Assembly: GCF_041260665.1 (NCBI RefSeq)
Contig: NZ_JBGCCT010000019.1
Span: forward strand, 59,492 to 123,491
Length of the DNA stretch: 64,000 nucleotides
DNA from: Catenulispora sp. GP43
Lineage (GTDB): Bacteria; Actinomycetota; Actinomycetes; Streptomycetales; Catenulisporaceae
Direction: 5' to 3'
Position numbers and translations under genes: made by a program. Position 1 is the first letter of the stretch. The number at the start of each line of letters is the position of its first letter. Below the pieces are notes generated by a model. That model did no database searches and was not told the DNA's origin. It saw only the letters and a list, made by a program, of their open reading frames with translations. Positions 886 through 48,376 of the stretch are shown one piece after another.

Positions 886-1410
886 TCACCAGGCCAGCAC
901 CGCAGCGAACCCGCCACAGTGAGCCATAGCCTCCAGCTCGTCCAGCGAGGCCTCGGCCTGCCCGGCGGTCTCCGGCTCCCGCTCGCGCAGCCCGCTGTCC
1001 TCGAACTCGTCCTCGTCCAGGCGCAGGATCTGCGTGTGGTCGCAGGACAACCACAGGTCCAGGTCGAGGTCGGCAACCTCCAGGCGCGGACTGTCGGCGG
1101 AGTCGGCGAACACCACGGTGGGGCGGGTGACGTCGCAGTACCAGCCCTTGATCTTGCCGGTCCCGGTACGGACCTCCTTGATCGAGTACCAGCGGGAACG
1201 CCAGTAGTGCTCGGTCCAGATGTCACCCGGTTCGAACACGGCGAAGCCCATGTCGCGCGGGGCGTCGCCGAACCAGGGCGCGACGACCACGACGTGCTCG
1301 CCGTCGTCGTACCGGACCTCGGCCGGGTACTCGACGTCCGGCCGCGGCGCCTTCAGCAGGCGGACGTTGATGGTCGTTCCGGGCTTCAGCGTTGCGTTTC
1401 CGTCGCTCAC
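886..1410 (-). CDS. DUF402-like protein
   Basis: 174 aa. WYSIKEV...KGWYCDV...LDLDLW pattern typical of DUF402 nucleotide-binding proteins. GTG start with a GGGGAAAC RBS. Overlapping ORFs 651-1226(-) and 811-1491(+) look like GC-rich frame artefacts. Confidence 0.55.
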   Translation of the reverse strand: MSDGNATLKPGTTINVRLLKAPRPDVEYPAEVRYDDGEHVVVVAPWFGDAPRDMGFAVFEPGDIWTEHYWRSRWYSIKEVRTGTGKIKGWYCDVTRPTVVFADSADSPRLEVADLDLDLWLSCDHTQILRLDEDEFEDSGLREREPETAGQAEASLDELEAMAHCGGFAAVLAW

Positions 1411-1510
1411 GTTTCCCCATCATTCCAAAAACCGGTTCCCGCGGGTCGCGGTAAGTCCCGCTCCTCAGCGGGGATCGGTAACTTACGGTGAAGTAGGTTA
1501 GGGTCCTCCT

Positions 1511-2560
1511 GTGGCCGAACGCGAATACGTTTATCCCCCGGTGATCCGGGCTATGAAGGGTGCTTTCCGGGCGCTCGACCTGAAGGTCGACGTGCACGGG
1601 GCCGACCGGATCCCGCGCAGCGGCGGGGCGGTGTTGGCCAGCAACCACATCAGCTACCTGGACTTCATCTTCGCCGGGGCGGCTGCCTTGCCGGCCAAGC
1701 GCAAGGTGCGGTTCATGGCCAAGAAGGAGGTCTTCGACAACAAGATCTCCGGGCCGCTGATGCGGGGCATGCGCCACATCCCGGTGGACCGCGAGGCCGG
1801 ACTGTCGTCCTACCGCCAGGCTCTGGACTTCCTGAAGTCCGGAGAAATCGTCGGCGTGTTCGGCGAGGCCACGATCAGCCGGTCGTTCATGATCAAGGAC
1901 CTGAAGAACGGCGCCGTGCGCATGGCGCAGGCCGCCGACGTGCCGCTGATCCCGGTGGTGCTGTGGGGCACGCAGCGGATGTGGACCAAGGGCCGGCCCA
2001 AGCGGCTCTGGCAGCGGCACCTGCCGATCACGGTGCTGGTCGGCGAGCCGATGTACCCCAAGAAGGGGCAGAACTCGAACGAGCTGACCGCCGAGCTGCA
2101 CGCGCGGCTGAGCGCCCTGCTCGACGAGGCGCAGGCGAACTACCCGGACAAGCCCTCGGGCCCCGAGGACTCGTGGTGGCTGCCGGCGCACCTCGGCGGC
2201 ACCGCGCCAACGCTGGAGCAGGCGGCGGAGATGGACGCGCGCGGCCGCGGCGAGAACCCGGCCGAGGAAGCGGCTGCCGAGCCGGCGAAGGCCCAGGCTG
2301 CGGAACCCGCGAAGGACAAGGTCGCCGAGCCGGCGAAGGTCGAGGCTGAGGAACCGACGAAGGCCGAGGCGCCGAAGGAGGCCGAGGCCGTCGAGACCGA
2401 GGCGCCGACGAAGGTCGAGACCGCCGAGGAATCCGCGAAGACCGAGATTGTCGAGGCCGAGCAGCCGGCGGACGAATCAGGCGCGGAATCGGCTGCGGAG
2501 CCGGCTGGCGAACCCGCGAAGGAAACGGTCGCGGCCAAGGACACCGCCGAAGACGTCTGA
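1511..2560 (+). CDS. 1-acyl-sn-glycerol-3-phosphate acyltransferase-like (PlsC family) with acidic repetitive C-terminal tail
   Basis: NHxxxxD motif (NHISYLD) and the downstream GVFGEAT(R) block of lysophospholipid acyltransferases. C-terminal ~110 aa is AEPAK/EAE-rich low complexity. Confidence 0.8.
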
Positions 2561-6938: not shown

Positions 6939-8603
6939 GTGACCCGATCGTCGTTCGCAGATCTCGTCTTCACCGGCGGCCCGTGCTACACCGTGGACCC
7001 GGCGCGCTCGTGGGCCGGGGCGGTGGCCGTCGCCGGCGGGCGGATCGCCGCGGTCGGACGGCCCGCCGACGTCGAAGACCTGATCGGGCCGGACACCGAG
7101 GTCGTCGACCTGACCGGCAAGCTGCTGCTGCCCGGCTTCCAGGACGCCCACGTCCACCCCGTCCTCGGCGGTACCACCTTGCGGCTGTGCGACCTGCACG
7201 AACTACACACCGCCAAGGAGTACCTCGACGCCGTCGCCGACTATGCGCGCCGCAACCCACAGGCTCCGTGGATCCGCGGGGGCGGATGGAGCCTGGAGGC
7301 CTTCCCCGGCGGTATGCCGACCAGGCAGATGCTGGACGCGGTCGTCCCGGACCGGCCGGTTGCACTGCCGAACCGCGACGCCCACGGCATGTGGGTCAAC
7401 AGCAAGGCGCTGGAGATGTGCGGGATCACCCGCGACACCCCGGACCCGTTCGACGGCCGGATCGAGCGCGACCCAGACGGCGAGCCCACCGGGTGCCTTC
7501 AGGAAGGGGCGATGGCACTGGTCGACCGGCACCTGCCGGTCCCCACGCGGCAGGAGTTGGCCGACGGCCTGCTGGCCGGCCAGGCGTACCTGCACTCGTT
7601 CGGGATCACCGCCTGGCAGGACGCGTGGGTCGGCACCGGCCTGGGCATCGGCGACGTCTTCGAGACCTACCGCGACGCCGAGGCCCGCGGCGTCCTGACG
7701 GCACGGGTCGCCGGGGCACTGTGGTGGGAGCGCGATGGCGGCCTGGAGCAGCTGGAGCTGTTCCGGAAGCGCCGCGCGGCGGCGGGGACGGGACGTTTCA
7801 GGGCCCGCACGGTGAAGATGATGCTCGACGGCGTCGCCGAGAACCACACCGCCGCGCTCCTGGACCCCTACCTGGACCGCTGCGGGTGCACCACCGACAA
7901 CGCCGGCCTGGACTTCATCGACCCGGACGCGCTCAAGACCTACGTCACCGCCCTGGACGCCGCCGGCTTCCAGGTCCACTTCCATGCACTAGGCGACCGC
8001 GCTGTCCGCAACACCCTGGACGCGCTGGAGGCGGCGCGCGCCGCGAACGGCGCCGGTGGCCGTCACCACCTGGCGCACCCGCAGGTCGTGCACCCGGACG
8101 ACGTCGCGCGGTTCCGCCGGCTCGGTGCGACGGCGAACATCCAGCCGCTGTGGGCTGCGCATGAGCCGGCGATGGATGAGCTGACCATCCCGTTCTTGGG
8201 CGAGGAGCGTGCCGCGTGGCAGTACCCGTTCGGCTCGCTCAGCCGTGCGGGGGCGACCCTGGCGGCCGGCTCGGACTGGTCGGTGAGTTCGCCGAACCCG
8301 CTGTGGGGCATCCACACGGCGGTGAACCGGGTGGAACCGGGCTTGTCGGAGCAGGAGTTCGTGGCGCGCAAGGTGTTCTATCCGGAGGAGCGGCTGGAGT
8401 TGGGCCAGGCGGTCGCGGCGTACACTGCCGGGTCGGCGTACCTGAACCAGCTGGACACGCTGGCCGGCTCGATCGAGGTCGGCAAGTTCGCCGACCTGGT
8501 GGTGCTGGACCGGGATCCGTTCGACGGGCCCGTGCACGGGATCGGCGAGGCGCGGGTGCTTCGGACGTTCGTGGAGGGCGCACGGGTGTTCGCCTCCGAA
8601 TAA
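6939..8603 (+). CDS. amidohydrolase family protein (Amidohydro_3 / YtcJ-like metal-dependent hydrolase)
   Basis: N-terminal beta-sandwich (ADLVFTGG...VDP...IAAVG), HVHPV metal-binding His pair, ~550 aa TIM-barrel hydrolase architecture. Confidence 0.85.
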   Translation: MTRSSFADLVFTGGPCYTVDPARSWAGAVAVAGGRIAAVGRPADVEDLIGPDTEVVDLTGKLLLPGFQDAHVHPVLGGTTLRLCDLHELHTAKEYLDAVADYARRNPQAPWIRGGGWSLEAFPGGMPTRQMLDAVVPDRPVALPNRDAHGMWVNSKALEMCGITRDTPDPFDGRIERDPDGEPTGCLQEGAMALVDRHLPVPTRQELADGLLAGQAYLHSFGITAWQDAWVGTGLGIGDVFETYRDAEARGVLTARVAGALWWERDGGLEQLELFRKRRAAAGTGRFRARTVKMMLDGVAENHTAALLDPYLDRCGCTTDNAGLDFIDPDALKTYVTALDAAGFQVHFHALGDRAVRNTLDALEAARAANGAGGRHHLAHPQVVHPDDVARFRRLGATANIQPLWAAHEPAMDELTIPFLGEERAAWQYPFGSLSRAGATLAAGSDWSVSSPNPLWGIHTAVNRVEPGLSEQEFVARKVFYPEERLELGQAVAAYTAGSAYLNQLDTLAGSIEVGKFADLVVLDRDPFDGPVHGIGEARVLRTFVEGARVFASE

Positions 8604-24714: not shown

Positions 24715-25863
24715 ATGCCAGTGCCCCTGCCCGACGCCGACACCGTCCTGCTGCTGCCGCCGGACGCCTCCGAGGTCGCCTGCGTGGCGCGCGGCGTCAT
24801 ATCCGCCGTCGCGCCGGAGGGCGGGCTGACCGGGCTGCAGCAGACGCTGCTGGCCGCCATGTTCCATTCGCTGACCGGGTTCGACATCGACCCGCTGGCG
24901 GTGCAGGCCGAGCTGGCCGGAAAGCCTTACAGCGCGACGGAGTTCGCCGAGGCCCTGCACCGGCGCAACGCGGCGTTCCGGGGCCGTGTCGTGCAGACGA
25001 TGGTCACCGCCGAGCTGGTGCTCTCGCCGCTGCCGGCGCAGGTGGCCGCCCGGGTGGCGGAGTTCGCCGCGGAACTGTCCGTCCACGACGACCTGGAGGA
25101 CGTGCTGATCGGCCACGCCGACTCCGGACGCCGCCTGGCCTCGATCGACTTCGACCGCAACGGGTACCTGCACGACTTCGACGTCCAGCACGCCGCGCAG
25201 CTGCACGTCGGCGACGGCGCGCTGACCGGCCCCTGGACGCCGGTGGAGAACGATCCGGCGCTGGCCGCGCGCTGGGCCTCGCTCGGCGACCTGCCGACCG
25301 GGACCCTCGGCCGGGGCGTGTACGACTTCTACCGCACCCGGGGCTTCTCCTTCCCCGGCTCCCCCGGCTCGGCCCCGCCGCTGCTGGCCCAGCACGACTG
25401 GGTGCACATCCTGGCCGACTACGGCACCCGGGTCGAATCAGAGATCGAGGTCTTCGCCTTCATCGCCCGGGCCAACGACGACCTGCACGCGTTCTCGTTG
25501 CTGGCCATGGTGGTGAGCCTGTTCGAGACCGGCGCGCTGGCCTCGGGCGCCGGGCTGTTCGAGGCCGACCGCGGCCACCTGTCGCAGCCGGGGATGGCGG
25601 TGCGCTTCGGCGACGCGCTGCGGCGCGCGGCCCTGTGCACCGGCAGCAACGACTTCATGGCCACCGACTGGTTCGCGGTCGCCGACAAGCCGGTGGCGGT
25701 GCTGCGCAAGGAGTTGCTGCTGGCGCCCAAGAGCCCCGAAGCGGTCCAGGCCGGCAGCGTCGGGCCGTGGGATGCCGCAGGCATCAGCCCGTTCCAGCTC
25801 AACGCCGGGCGCAAGCTGGCCGAGGCCGAAGGGCGGGAGTACACAGGCCCCACCTTGGACTGA
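24715..25863 (+). CDS. hypothetical protein
   Basis: 382 aa. Good RBS (GGAAGG). Strong third-position GC. No recognisable motif. Confidence 0.55.
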   Translation: MPVPLPDADTVLLLPPDASEVACVARGVISAVAPEGGLTGLQQTLLAAMFHSLTGFDIDPLAVQAELAGKPYSATEFAEALHRRNAAFRGRVVQTMVTAELVLSPLPAQVAARVAEFAAELSVHDDLEDVLIGHADSGRRLASIDFDRNGYLHDFDVQHAAQLHVGDGALTGPWTPVENDPALAARWASLGDLPTGTLGRGVYDFYRTRGFSFPGSPGSAPPLLAQHDWVHILADYGTRVESEIEVFAFIARANDDLHAFSLLAMVVSLFETGALASGAGLFEADRGHLSQPGMAVRFGDALRRAALCTGSNDFMATDWFAVADKPVAVLRKELLLAPKSPEAVQAGSVGPWDAAGISPFQLNAGRKLAEAEGREYTGPTLD

Positions 25864-25894: not shown

Positions 25895-25937
25895 GGAAAA
25901 AGGGGCGAGGCCCAGGGTTTTGCCCGCCCTGGGCCTC
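25895..25937 (-). terminator. rho-independent terminator on minus strand
   Basis: Perfect 11-bp stem GAGGCCCAGGG/CCCTGGGCCTC with 9-nt loop. On the minus strand it is followed by CGCCCCTTTTTCC. Sits downstream of the tRNA-like region and gene 26289-27024. Confidence 0.6.
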
Positions 25938-26008
25938 TCCACACGGTAGGTGTGGTGCCGTCGTGGTGCGCACGCCGATGGCGTTTAAGAAAGCAGGTAA
26001 GCCTGAGG

Positions 26009-26081
26009 CACCGCGCTCTTCCTATTGAGCTATCCCCGCATGAGAGAGCGGGGAACGGGGCTCGAACCCGCAACCTCGGTG
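26009..26081 (-). ncRNA. circularly permuted tRNA-like cloverleaf element (not a canonical tRNA gene)
   Basis: Minus-strand reading 5'-CACCG AGGTT GCGGG-TTCGAGC-CCCGT TCCCCGC T CTCTCAT GCGGGGA TA GCTC-AATAGGAA-GAGC G CGGTG-3'. Perfect T-arm, 7-bp acceptor stem closed by an 8-nt loop, U8, 4-bp D-arm with GG, and a 5-bp stem CACCG/CGGTG at anticodon-stem positions. Exactly 73 nt. The two halves are in swapped order and there is no anticodon loop. Confidence 0.45.
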
Positions 26082-26162
26082 TATGACCCGCTTCCGGTCG
26101 ATCCGGCGATGGACGGCGAGGACTGAGCTTGGAGCGAGAGTCTGAAACTGCTCACTGCTGCC

Positions 26163-26230
26163 TCTGCCTACTTGGGCTACCTCCGCACGCTATGCGGAGG
26201 GAGGGATTCGAACCCCCACTGTCACAGTGT
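26163..26230 (-). ncRNA. second, partial tRNA-like element (T-arm GGGGG-TTCGAAT-CCCTC plus acceptor-type hairpin)
   Basis: Minus strand: CACTG-TGA-CAGTG hairpin, then canonical T-arm, then CCTCCGCA-TAGCG-TGCGGAGG hairpin followed by TA GCC-CAAGTA-GGC (D-arm-like). Same permuted layout as 26009-26081 but the outer stem is not convincing. Confidence 0.3.
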
Positions 26231-26288
26231 TCGTGAAATTCAGGCGTCACATTAAGCTTGGTCGCTCGCCGCCGATCCTAGCGAAACC

Positions 26289-27024
26289 TCACGCGAAGAG
26301 GTAACCGAATACCGCCTCGCCCACGCGCTGGTCGGTGACCTCGAAGGTGTTCGCCTCCTCGCGGGCGAACTTCACCGCCTGGCTCAGCTTCTCCACCCGC
26401 TCCACGAGTTCGTTGACCCGCTGCGCCGGAAGTGCGCCGGAGAACTTGGTCTGCGTCCAGTAGCCGACGGCGATGTCCTCGTAGTACACCTCGACCTGCG
26501 CCGGGTGCTTCTCCGTGGCCTCGGCCTTGACGTGGTTGCGCGGCACCTTCTTGGTCCGCAGCGTGCGCACCGGCTCGGTCCGGTACCAGTCTGTGGACGG
26601 GTCGGCTGACCAGGACTCGGCGGCGTCGAGGATCGGCAGCTTCTTGACGAACGTGTTCAGGTCGGCGAGCTGCTTCTCCAGGAAGAGCAGGTAGGACACC
26701 GGCACGTCGCGCAGCAGGGTGGTGCCCTCCACGACGACGTCGGCGCGCGCCACGCAGTTCGCCCAGTCCTTGGTGGCGGTGACGTCGAACAGGCGGGTCA
26801 GGCCGGTGGCGATCTGGCGCAGCACGTCCTCGGCCTTGACCTGGACGCGGGTGGACTCCGGCGGGAGCTGCTCGCCGTCCTCGTCCTTGGGCTGGTAGGT
26901 GCGGCTCAGTCCGGTGAGCAGCGGCTGCTTCTGGACGTCGTGGTGGGCCTGGGTGAGTTCGGCGTAGGACTTGCTCTTGACGCCTTTCTCGATGGCGATG
27001 ATCTGGCTGAGTTTGGTGGCCATG
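26289..27024 (-). CDS. hypothetical K/E-rich protein
   Basis: ~245 aa from MATKLSQIIAIEKGVKSK... GGGGGGAA RBS 4 nt before ATG. Charged composition. No known motif. Same strand as, and immediately upstream of, the tRNA-like elements and the terminator. Confidence 0.6.
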
Positions 27025-27208
27025 ATGGTTCCCCCCATGCGCTAGGGCATGTCGTGAGTCTGATGTGTGCTGAGGCAGAGCCTATGGACGGGTGCCGACA
27101 GTCCGTACGGCGGGTCGGCCGGGTCGGCCGGGTCCATGGCGTGGACATGATGATGACAGACCGGGCGGGAGCGGATGTAGGTAATTTCGCCGTCGAACTT
27201 TGATTGAC

Positions 27209-46378: not shown

Positions 46379-48201
46379 TCACAGCTGCTCCGGCGCGGCG
46401 ATCCCCAGCAGCGCCAGCCCCAGCTTCAGCGTCTCGCCGGTCAGCCGCACCAGCGCGGCGCGGTTCTCCCGCACCGCGTCGGTCGGTGCCTTGAGGACCG
46501 GGCAGTTCTCGTAGAAGTCCGAGAACGTCTGCGCCAGCGCGTACAGGTACGACGCCAGGCGGTGCGGCTCGAAGTTCTCCGTGACCGTGGCCAGCGTCGC
46601 CCCGAGGTCGTCCAGGTGCAGTGCCAGCTTGCGCTCGGCCGGCTCCAGTTCCAGGTCCGGGTGCACGCGGGCGGCGGTGCCCGCGGGCAGCTTGCGCAGG
46701 ATCGAGTGGATCCGGGCGTGCGCGTATTGCAGGTAGACGCTGGTGTTCCCGTGCAGGGAGACCATACGGTCCAGGTCGAAGACGTAGTCCTTGGTGCGGG
46801 AGGTCGACAGGTCCGCGTACTTCACCGCGCCGATGCCGACGATCTTCGCCTCGGTGCGCGCGGCGTCGGCGTCCAGGTCCGGATTCTTCTCCTGGACGGT
46901 GGCCACGGCGTGGTCGACGGCGCTGTCGAGCAGTTCGATGAGGCGGATGGTCTTGCCGGCGCGGGTCTTGAACGGCTTGCCGTCGGTCCCCAGGACCGAG
47001 CCGAACTGCACGTGGACCGCCTCGACGCCTTCGGGCAGGTAGCCGGCGCGGCGTGCGGTCTCGAACACCATGCGGAAGTGCAGTGCCTGGCGGCTGTCGA
47101 CGACGTAGAGGATCTGGTCGGCCTTCAGGGTGTCGACGCGGTAGCGGATCGCGGCCAGGTCGGTGGCGGCGTAGCCGAAGCCGCCGTCGCTCTTGCGCAC
47201 GATCAGCGGGACCGGGTCGCCGTCGGGGCCCTTGATGTCGTCGAAGAACACGCACAGCGCGCCCTCGCTCCACACCGCCACGCCCCGCTGTTCCAGGTCG
47301 GCGGCGACCTCGGCGAGGTAGGGGTTGTAGAAGCTCTCGCCGACCGCGTCGGCGTCGACCAGGCGCACGTCCAGGCGGGAGTAGACGTCCTCGAAGTAGC
47401 GCTTGGACTCCGCGACCATCTCGCGCCAGGCCGCCAGCGACTCCTCGTCGCCGCCCTGCAGGGTCACCACGCGCTTGCGGGCCCGGTCGGCGAACTGGGC
47501 GTCGGCCTCGAAGTGCGCCCGGGCGTCGCGGTACAGGGCGGTCAGCCAGGAGATGGCGGCCTGACCGGAGTGCTCGGCCTCGGCCGGGCGGGCCTCGGGG
47601 TGCTCGACCAGGTACTGGATGAGCATGCCGAACTGGGTGCCCCAGTCGCCGAGGTGGTTCTGGCGCACCACGGTGCGGCCGTCGAACTCCAGCATGCGGA
47701 CCAGCGCGTCGCCGATGACGGTCGAGCGCAGGTGGCCGACGTGCATCTCCTTGGCGATGTTCGGCTGGGAGTAGTCGATGACGGTGGTCTGCCCGACCGC
47801 GGTGGGCGCCACGCCCAGGCGCGGGTCGCCGAGGCGCTCGGCGGCCTGGCCGGCCAGGGCGGCGTCGGTGAGGGTGAGGTTGAGGAAGCCGGGGCCGGCG
47901 ACCTCGACGGCGGCGATCACGCCGGAGGTCGGGACGTGCGGGGCGGCCGCGGGCTGGCCGGAGGCATCCGCGCTGTCCACGCCAGCCGCGCCGGCCGGGG
48001 CCAGTGCGGCGGCGACCTTCGTGGCGAGTTCGCGCGGGTTGCCCTTCACGGCCTTGGCCAGCGGCAGCACCCCGTTGGCCTGGAAGTCGGCGTGGTCGGA
48101 GGGGCGGATCAGCGGGTCGGCGTCGCGCGCCGCGTCCCCCAGCACCGCGGTCAGCGCGGCGCGGACGTCGTCCGCCAGGATCTCCGACAGTGCCTTGGCC
48201 A
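46379..48201 (-). CDS. argS: arginine--tRNA ligase
   Basis: HIGH-type motif (HVGH) and KMSK-region equivalents. C-terminal anticodon-binding (DALR) domain. ATG 48201 with GAGGAAACCC RBS. The track ORF extends 18 codons further upstream. Confidence 0.9.
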
Positions 48202-48376
48202 TGGGTTTCCTCGCTGCTCGGACCGATTCTCCGGCCGTTTTGATGGGGTCTGTCAAGCCTAGCGCCCAGGCCGAATCGATTTATAACTCAAACACGTGCG
48301 TTTGACTTAGTCGGGGCGGCGCGTCATCGTGGAATTCGAACACCACTGTTTGATTTCCACGACGGAGGGGATTCCG

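Follow-up and report, generated by a model that had tools for sequence, protein, structure and literature searches.

A DUF7873 gene and a conserved RNA with permuted tRNA-like domains form a linked unit in actinomycetes and phages

The DUF7873 gene and the RNA that follows it

The DNA analysed here is a 64,000 nt stretch of the actinomycete Catenulispora sp. GP43 (contig NZ_JBGCCT010000019.1, positions 59,492 to 123,491), which we refer to as the window and to which coordinates belong unless another locus is named. On its minus strand a gene for a 244-aa protein of the DUF7873 family is followed by a structured non-coding RNA of about 350 nt containing two permuted transfer RNA (tRNA)-like modules, and gene and RNA are found together on the same strand in actinomycetes and phages. 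The coding sequence (CDS) runs from 26289 to 27023, with its stop codon TGA at 26289-26291 and its ATG at 27023-27021; the initial annotation of the window had the gene on the correct strand with its end one base too far out, at 27024. The ATG at 27023 is preferred over an upstream ATG at 27038 because homologues begin MATKL or MAKL, and the ribosome-binding site claimed for the gene would correspond to a run of G residues at 27031-27036, 8-13 nt 5' of the ATG. The GC content at third codon positions is 0.95.

The protein matches Pfam PF25283 (DUF7873) over residues 3-243, aligned to positions 2-242 of the 244-position profile, with 398.9 bits (E 1.2e-119) against a gathering score of 27 bits, which makes it a member of the family. 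None of the sources checked gives DUF7873 a functional name. Scans of the window protein against NCBIfam, PADLOC and PHROGs returned no match, a comparison of 33 family members with PHROGs gave a single weak match for one member (E 0.0095) and a sequence search of the PDB found no solved relative; the protein thus falls into a family uncharacterised across Pfam, NCBIfam, PADLOC, PHROGs and the PDB and not into a well-characterised one unrelated to RNA. Its description as rich in lysine and glutamate holds for this genome, lysine making up 7.4% of residues (1.9% in the window's other genes) and glutamate 8.6% (5.0% there), yet the protein is not basic. AlphaFold gave a poor model from a shallow alignment (predicted local distance difference test score, pLDDT, 56) and a confident one from a diverse alignment (pLDDT 94.2, predicted template modelling score 0.80). 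The latter predicts long helices alongside beta strands, two of which make a long hairpin (residues 152-195) where the highly conserved segment RTKKVPRNHVKAEATEKHPAQV would sit, and the predicted fold has no convincing fold match.

The stretch from the stop codon to a terminal hairpin (26288-25938) is non-coding, and an alignment of downstream regions from many genera shows one conserved RNA of about 350 nt; the stretch folds better than shuffled controls (z = -3.6). From 5' to 3' it consists of GCUGAA/CUGAR-type blocks, module 1, CAGACUCUCGCUCCAG and YUCAGC-type blocks, the sequence AUCGA, an outer stem that is variable but paired, module 2, ACUGAUC and UUAAACG, and the terminal hairpin. Read in order, both modules consist of a variable-loop-like spacer, the T arm (GGUUCRANYCC), an acceptor stem of 7 bp with a short closing loop, UA and the D arm; instead of an anticodon arm there is a long stem to which the flanks pair. 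The initial annotation was right to see permuted tRNA-like elements in this stretch, though these are domains of one larger RNA and not two loose elements.

The 5' domain (26277-26123) carries GCUGAA/CUGAA-type and UUCAG/AAGCU-type flanking blocks, module 1 and the conserved block UUUCAGACUCUCGCUCCAAGCUCAG (26123-26147), and is conserved across genera and phages. Module 1 (26150-26229) comprises a closing stem CACUG/CAGUG, the T arm at 26201-26217, an acceptor hairpin at 26180-26200 with 7 bp and discriminator A, and the D arm at 26160-26177. The 3' domain (25947-26118) contains a long-range helix, the AUCGA linker, the outer stem, module 2 and UUAAACG. Its linker (26098-26102, in the window as GGAUCGA) is single-stranded and invariant in 36/36 diverse sequences. 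Module 2 (26007-26081) has a closing stem, the T arm at 26055-26071, the D arm at 26015-26030 and an acceptor hairpin at 26033-26054, again of 7 bp, whose loop reads U-CUC-UCAU before G+1. The long-range helix, with its 3' strands within 25954-25978, encloses module 2 and consists of an inner helix pairing UCGGCG (25973-25978) with CGCCGG (26103-26108) and an outer helix pairing GACGGC (25957-25962) with GCCGUC (26112-26117). The single-stranded block UUAAACG (25982-25988), of which UUAAA is nearly invariant in the 3'-domain alignment, is kept from phage contigs with a GC content of 0.34 to actinomycetes at 0.70, and CAGACUCUCGCUCCAG is a further invariant single-stranded block.

We rejected a canonical tRNA gene as an explanation, the order being permuted, a long helix replacing the anticodon arm, ARAGORN calling 0 tRNAs in the entire window and the Rfam tRNA model finding no match there. 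At two Streptomyces loci ARAGORN did call a 'tRNA-Leu(gag)' over the 5' domain and module 1 (L047 10805-10891 and L060 10753-10841), probably a miscall; in both the acceptor loop has a long insertion.

The RNA ends at an intrinsic-terminator-like hairpin (25897-25937) with an 11-bp GC-rich stem (25937-25927/25917-25907) and a 9-nt loop, followed by a GCCCC spacer and U5 at 25901-25897, as seen by direct reading and in the minimum free energy (MFE) fold. The initial annotation had placed a canonical rho-independent terminator at 25895-25937; hairpin and U5 are there, but the U5 starts 5 nt past the stem and a simple terminator scanner did not call the hairpin, presumably because the stated limits of that program do not extend to a 9-nt loop and a 5-nt spacer. 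In other genera a homologous GC-rich hairpin of changed sequence follows the RNA and the U-run is often absent, including in many Streptomyces. Direct reading of the window from the stop codon to the terminal hairpin finds no other hairpin with a U-run and so no terminator between CDS and RNA.

Conservation of the linkage and of the RNA fold

A covariance model of the 3' domain with 174 positions and 31 pairs, termed R1, was built from other genomes. It matches the window at full length once, over its positions 1-174 at 25947-26118 (132.9 bits, E 9.5e-40), with a partial match on module 1 at 26159-26217 (30.3 bits). Each of 80 genome loci with the gene likewise holds exactly one full-length match (80/80, 112-164 bits), always on the gene's strand and starting about 135-270 nt past it, with module 1 seen as a partial match about 100 nt upstream of each; no further full-length match occurs in 1.6 Mb. 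A second set of 84 loci, comprising 79 from viral contigs, two from isolated Gordonia phages, one from Ktedonobacter and two that are non-viral, gave full-length matches in 74 at 65-145 bits. Phages of Vibrio, Klebsiella, Rhizobium, Ralstonia and Pseudanabaena encode homologues only 30-44% identical, and there too the gene is followed by a gap of 340-700 nt with no annotated forward-strand gene and with permuted tRNA-like matches.

The linkage also holds in the reverse direction. Metagenome contigs were scanned for the 18-nt RNA motif YTCAGAYTMTYGCTCCAG and the resulting 120 loci filtered with R1; 29 were confirmed, and in 28 of these a DUF7873 gene lies directly upstream on the same strand, against 0/91 of the unconfirmed chance motif matches. 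In all, more than 180 loci conserve the full 174-position domain, and the adjacency spans phages of at least four bacterial phyla and two cellular phyla while the other neighbours change. The proposal of one unit made of protein gene and structured RNA is therefore strongly supported by comparison across genomes. As a side observation, junctions of adjacent real tRNA genes give partial R1 matches at model positions of about 49-117 (L096 4709-4799, L142 8683-11996).

The fold is supported by covariation. When 36 diverse 3' domains were aligned by MAFFT alone, RNAalifold recovered five helices, namely the long-range helix, outer stem, T arm, acceptor stem and D arm, with compensatory changes in 30/31 pairs. 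For a slightly larger structure 86.9% of cells are paired against 63.7% in shuffles, five helices are 88-100% paired, and the covariation score is 0.689 against 0.24 in shuffles and 0.13-0.19 in slid controls. The T arm, acceptor stem and D arm of module 2 are 98.6-100% paired with covariation, the acceptor stem being paired in 100% of cells with 7/7 pairs covarying. The closing stem of module 2 was omitted from R1 because it is only 51% paired, owing to register shifts in the MAFFT alignment. Residues matching tRNA U8, A14, G18, G19, A21 and the T-loop, in a numbering of our own assignment, are invariant or nearly so.

The strands of the long-range inner helix are the 6 nt directly 5' of AUCGA and 6 nt shortly 3' of UUAAACG; it is 98.1% paired, all six pairs vary on both sides and at least 16 covarying versions occur (for example CGCCGG:UCGGCG in the window, CACCAA:UUGGUG, GAUUCA:UGAAUC and GUACUG:CAGUGC elsewhere). 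The outer helix is 69% paired and occurs chiefly in actinomycetes. The MFE fold proposes instead the local hairpins CCGG-AUCGA-CCGG and CGCC-AUC-GGCG, which we rejected as the covariation backs the long-range helix. For module 1, RNAalifold on 23 sequences finds compensatory changes in the T arm and acceptor stem, the D arm being uninformative because it never varies. Nested, local-hairpin and pseudoknot pairings of the module 1 flanks (GCUGAA/CUGAR and YUCAG) each fit some sequences, and one locus (L099) fits none. Taken together these results demonstrate the linkage of gene and RNA and the structure of the RNA.

The acceptor loops carry further tRNA features. In module 1 the discriminator is A in 55/62 cellular and 36/56 viral copies, followed by CCA in 22/62 and 29/56 respectively, where chance would give about 1/64. 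Module 2 has U or G as discriminator, followed by CCA in 39/92 viral copies and by CUC, CUU or CUG in 77/85 cellular ones. The 5' strand of the acceptor stem nearly always begins with G at +1, and U stands at -1 in 62/92 viral module 2 copies. Judged from sequence, these loops look like a 3' trailer joined to a 5' leader, as in a circularly permuted tRNA.

The protein family is large. A word-indexed search found 7,118 proteins and an exhaustive search of 50%-identity representatives found 2,395 clusters, 1,038 of them with E < 1e-30; nearly all of the hits listed are of about 245 aa and match in one stretch. The window protein shares 97% identity with a protein of Catenulispora sp. NF23, those of Streptomyces, Kitasatospora, Actinomadura, Micromonospora and Kutzneria are about 80% identical and that of Ktedonobacter (Chloroflexota) is 74% identical. 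Among candidate stretches of IMG/VR contigs 478/600 encode a relative, at contig GC contents of 0.34-0.70, and 75 isolated phage records contain a homologue. These include Arthrobacter phage Racecar, the Gordonia phages GodonK, Phendrix, Fryberger and Ziko, Pseudanabaena phage PA-SR01, Vibrio phages, Klebsiella jumbo phages, Rhizobium phage RHph_TM30 and Ralstonia phage phiRSL1; where annotated, the phage gene is always labelled 'hypothetical protein'. Judged by reading only, clusters of open reading frames (ORFs) adjoining the viral loci resemble terminase, portal, lysin, primase, HNH endonuclease and polynucleotide kinase genes. Two metagenomic 'proteins' turned out to be frame-shifted gene calls of DUF7873 genes.

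Surroundings differ between phages and cells. ARAGORN called 506 tRNAs in 48 of the phage and viral loci, with at least 10 in 20 loci, and no tRNA arrays in the cellular loci. In GodonK about 25-30 tRNA genes and a transfer-messenger RNA (tmRNA) form an array that has the DUF7873 gene at its centre, all on one strand. The tmRNA (Rfam match of 90 bits at L169 2387-2915, about 2 kb upstream of the DUF7873 gene and within the array) is unannotated in the GodonK record, where a short tRNA-His is called inside the same region. The genes around the module differ between the Streptomyces, Catenulispora and Actinomadura loci, the Streptomyces copy lying within a few kb of lysA, hom, thrC, thrB and rho. 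In the window a 382-aa gene without Pfam match converges on the module (24715-25860, plus strand), and Catenulispora sp. NF23 has an unnamed 379-aa gene on that side of the module too, separated from it by a PNPOx gene. An arginyl-tRNA synthetase gene 20 kb away in the window (46382-48256, minus strand) and a similar one about 3 kb from the module in a Streptomyces locus are probably coincidences.

A probable protein-RNA module and its alternatives

We consider it likely that the locus is a two-part module resembling Ro60 and its Y RNAs, composed of the DUF7873 gene and a composite RNA of about 350 nt on which tRNA-maturation enzymes probably act. We infer co-transcription, processing, binding of the RNA by the protein and a tRNA-related role. 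The mRNA and the RNA would form a single transcript ending at the hairpin at 25897-25937. Enzymes of tRNA maturation would then cut the acceptor loops, RNase P before G+1, with 3' trimming and CCA addition after the discriminator base, and these cuts would release the RNA from the mRNA and leave base-paired pieces. The DUF7873 protein may bind the conserved blocks that have no tRNA counterpart, giving a particle analogous to the Ro60-Y RNA complex, and through its tRNA-shaped domains this particle could make contact with proteins that recognise the body or the acceptor end of a tRNA. As the phage module lies inside tRNA arrays it probably serves tRNA supply, repair or protection in infection, and the chromosomal copies of actinomycetes and Ktedonobacteria would be the cellular version of that phage function.

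A bolder form of the same idea, which we regard as doubtful, is that the module represents an unrecognised and widespread class of ribonucleoprotein. Here both acceptor loops would be opened by RNase P and 3'-end enzymes to give a multi-piece, CCA-ended RNA, kept in one complex by its acceptor stems, bound by DUF7873 and working through its ends, either as a sponge for host toxins that hit tRNA acceptor ends in phage infection or as an aminoacylated adaptor similar in principle to tmRNA with SmpB.

Several observations weigh against a dedicated protein-RNA particle or against parts of it. With an isoelectric point of 5.9 the protein is mildly acidic, so that of the charged, nucleic-acid-binding-like composition noted in the initial annotation the charge stands and the likeness to nucleic-acid-binding proteins is suggestive. 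The linkage has exceptions: three loci (L131/L132 and L154) show no R1 match, six more show only a partial, weak or end-truncated one, and in L144 gene and RNA are on opposite strands, 1.2 kb apart (RNA at 7921-8093, minus strand). In L087 (1444-3257) a homologue of 45% identity stands without the RNA and is followed by genes for a YqeY-domain protein and a Thg1-like protein of the tRNA 5'-end repair type, while in L259 the RNA occurs without a DUF7873 gene (1370-1540, minus strand), downstream of an ORF for a glucose/sorbosone dehydrogenase. A plain hairpin takes the place of module 1 in three Streptomyces loci (L008, L014 and L028) and six viral ones (L122, L127, L148, L155, L160 and L164), in all of which the flanking conserved blocks and module 2 are retained, so module 1 is not essential. 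When the modules were compared with the tRNA species of the same phage none stood out, mean identity being about 0.5 to every type, and a role as decoy of a specific tRNA is unsupported because the modules resemble no particular tRNA of that phage. A -10-like TAGGAT also lies directly past the stop codon (26275-26280, minus strand), with AGGAT, AGACT and TGAT motifs recurring at this position in other actinomycetes.

Because of TAGGAT and the recurring motifs the RNA may have its own promoter, and the hexamer could be either this promoter or part of the 5' structure of the RNA. It is conceivable, if unlikely, that the RNA is an independent small RNA gene serving Ro60 or another protein encoded elsewhere and that its adjacency to DUF7873 reflects co-regulation or co-inheritance without any complex. 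The resemblance of AUCGA to the GNCGAAN0-1G and GGUCCGA motifs thought to be recognised by Ro60, the position of YrlA as the sole Rfam family matching the RNA and the two loci with the RNA on the opposite strand or without the gene all fit this explanation. However, the first conserved stem begins about 11 nt past the stop codon in the window, so that the promoter would have to lie inside the conserved CDS. No gene for a TROVE protein is listed within 10 kb in the Streptomyces, Catenulispora and Actinomadura loci, and the window's nine ORFs of 450-680 aa include none either. An adjacency maintained in phages of at least four phyla and in two cellular phyla is moreover hard to explain without a functional tie.

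It is rather improbable that the structured region is a cis-acting 3' untranslated region (UTR) of the DUF7873 mRNA, which protects it from exonucleases or controls translation without a function in trans. Its place on the same strand directly past the stop codon with a single terminal hairpin would suit such a UTR, and stable tRNA-like folds block exonucleases, as has been discussed for YrlA (Chen et al., PMC4201824). A simple stabiliser would need no invariant blocks, tertiary nucleotides, discriminator with CCA or long-range helix kept from GC 0.34 to 0.70, however, and L144 and L259 speak against a purely cis-acting element as well.

Still less probable is a pair resembling type III toxin-antitoxin systems, in which the RNA would neutralise a harmful DUF7873 protein. 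The locus does share with them a two-part composition of protein and RNA, mobility between phages and chromosomes and variable neighbourhoods, but type III systems have tandem repeats and a terminator upstream of the toxin gene and here a single non-repetitive RNA lies downstream. The PADLOC scan was negative, the Streptomyces copy sits among housekeeping genes and a cross-genus identity of about 80% is more typical of a core function.

The notion that the tRNA-like pieces are functionless remnants of decayed tRNA genes, tandem-tRNA junctions or phage attachment sites, to which the partial R1 matches at real tandem tRNA junctions might lend some colour, has next to no probability and is refuted by covariation and conservation, the acceptor halves being 100% paired with 7/7 pairs covarying, the 174-position domain recurring in over 180 loci and no tRNA arrays occurring in the window or the cellular loci.

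Returning to the DUF7873 gene and its RNA as a two-part module, it is widespread, very strongly conserved and apparently undescribed, a literature search having found no paper that mentions DUF7873 and no description of the module. A family without a functional name thereby gains a concrete candidate partner, an RNA of about 350 nt outside any Rfam family. If DUF7873 binds this RNA, the tRNA-mimicking design of Y RNAs is no longer restricted to Ro60, and such independence bears on a long-standing question, the purpose of the tRNA-like domain in these RNAs. The position in phage tRNA arrays ties the module to the contest between phages and host systems that target tRNAs. Streptomyces genetics, and Gordonia and Arthrobacter phages from teaching collections, make the module easy to test experimentally.

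Comparison with known RNA systems

GOLLD and ROOL are large, ornate non-coding RNAs of phages, frequent in their genomes and adjoining tRNA genes. The DUF7873-linked RNA shares with them its large size, its ornate structure, its frequency in phages and its place next to tRNA genes; it is much smaller, however, is built from tRNA mimics and is strictly tied to one protein gene. In the window and 11 diverse loci neither GOLLD nor ROOL produces a match at the Rfam gathering score.

In two-piece tmRNA the coding is permuted, the 3' acceptor strand with CCA preceding a linker and the 5' strand, and SmpB acts as a dedicated small protein. A permuted tRNA-like domain, a small protein partner (putative for DUF7873) and presence in phage tRNA arrays are common to both systems, and GodonK carries a tmRNA of standard type beside the module. 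Unlike tmRNA the modules described here have a D stem, and the DUF7873 protein has no Pfam or NCBIfam match beyond DUF7873. The Rfam tmRNA models have no match on the DUF7873-linked RNA in the window or at other loci.

The closest parallels are with YrlA. It is the only Rfam family that touches the RNA, matching module 2 at 25988-26093 with 34.5 bits and scoring 31.1-40.8 bits in four other loci, all below its gathering score of 69, and at gathering score no Rfam family matches the RNA in the window or in the 11 diverse loci. As in YrlA, the modules present a permuted T arm, an acceptor-like stem closed by a loop and a D arm, with a long stem formed by the flanks in place of the anticodon arm; the tertiary nucleotides of tRNA are conserved and a short conserved motif containing CGA lies toward the 5' side. 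YrlA RNAs often occur two per locus on the strand of the partner gene, a further likeness to the two modules. In the rsr-yrlBA-rtcBA operon of Salmonella rsr is followed by two Y RNAs, a layout that the DUF7873 locus parallels. Like the DUF7873 module, YrlA and Ro60 are found in bacteria and phages alike (PMC4201824).

In practice YrlA is defined by lying on the strand of rsr and no more than 4 kb from it, and tandem-tRNA junctions are a known artefact in searches for it (Chen et al., PMC4201824). Near its 5' end the motif GNCGAAN0-1G is thought to be the contact with Ro60 (PMC4201824). The similar AUCGA stands in the context GGAUCGACC in the window and AUCGAACG in some Streptomyces; the CGA core is common to both, with A in place of the first G, and U-C standing for the N-C of the motif. 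We have not filed the RNA as YrlA because it scores below the gathering score, no TROVE gene is seen within 10 kb in the three genera or among the 450-680 aa ORFs of the window, and its AUCGA resembles GNCGAAN0-1G without being identical to it.

The YrlA of Mycobacterium smegmatis, whose acceptor stem has 7 bp, is a substrate of RNase P both in vitro and in vivo and acquires CCA in vivo (Chen et al. 2014, PMC4201824). Processing of this type is plausible for the DUF7873-linked RNA because its acceptor stems are also of 7 bp and 100% paired. Both RNAs are actinobacterial with a loop at the position of the fused 3' and 5' ends, and the loops of the DUF7873-linked RNA contain the discriminator, often CCA, and G+1 after U. 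In M. smegmatis, however, the processing is demonstrated where ours is inferred, and that RNA is bound by Rsr and encoded next to rsr.

Three features set the present system apart from YrlA. Its invariable neighbour is a gene for a 244-aa DUF7873 protein whose predicted fold appears unrelated to Ro60 or TROVE, its two modules belong as domains to a single RNA of about 350 nt, and the blocks UUAAACG and CAGACUCUCGCUCCAG and the long-range helix are additions. On the basis of sequence comparison, then, the RNA is a tRNA mimic of the YrlA type with a different protein neighbour and a larger, two-domain architecture.

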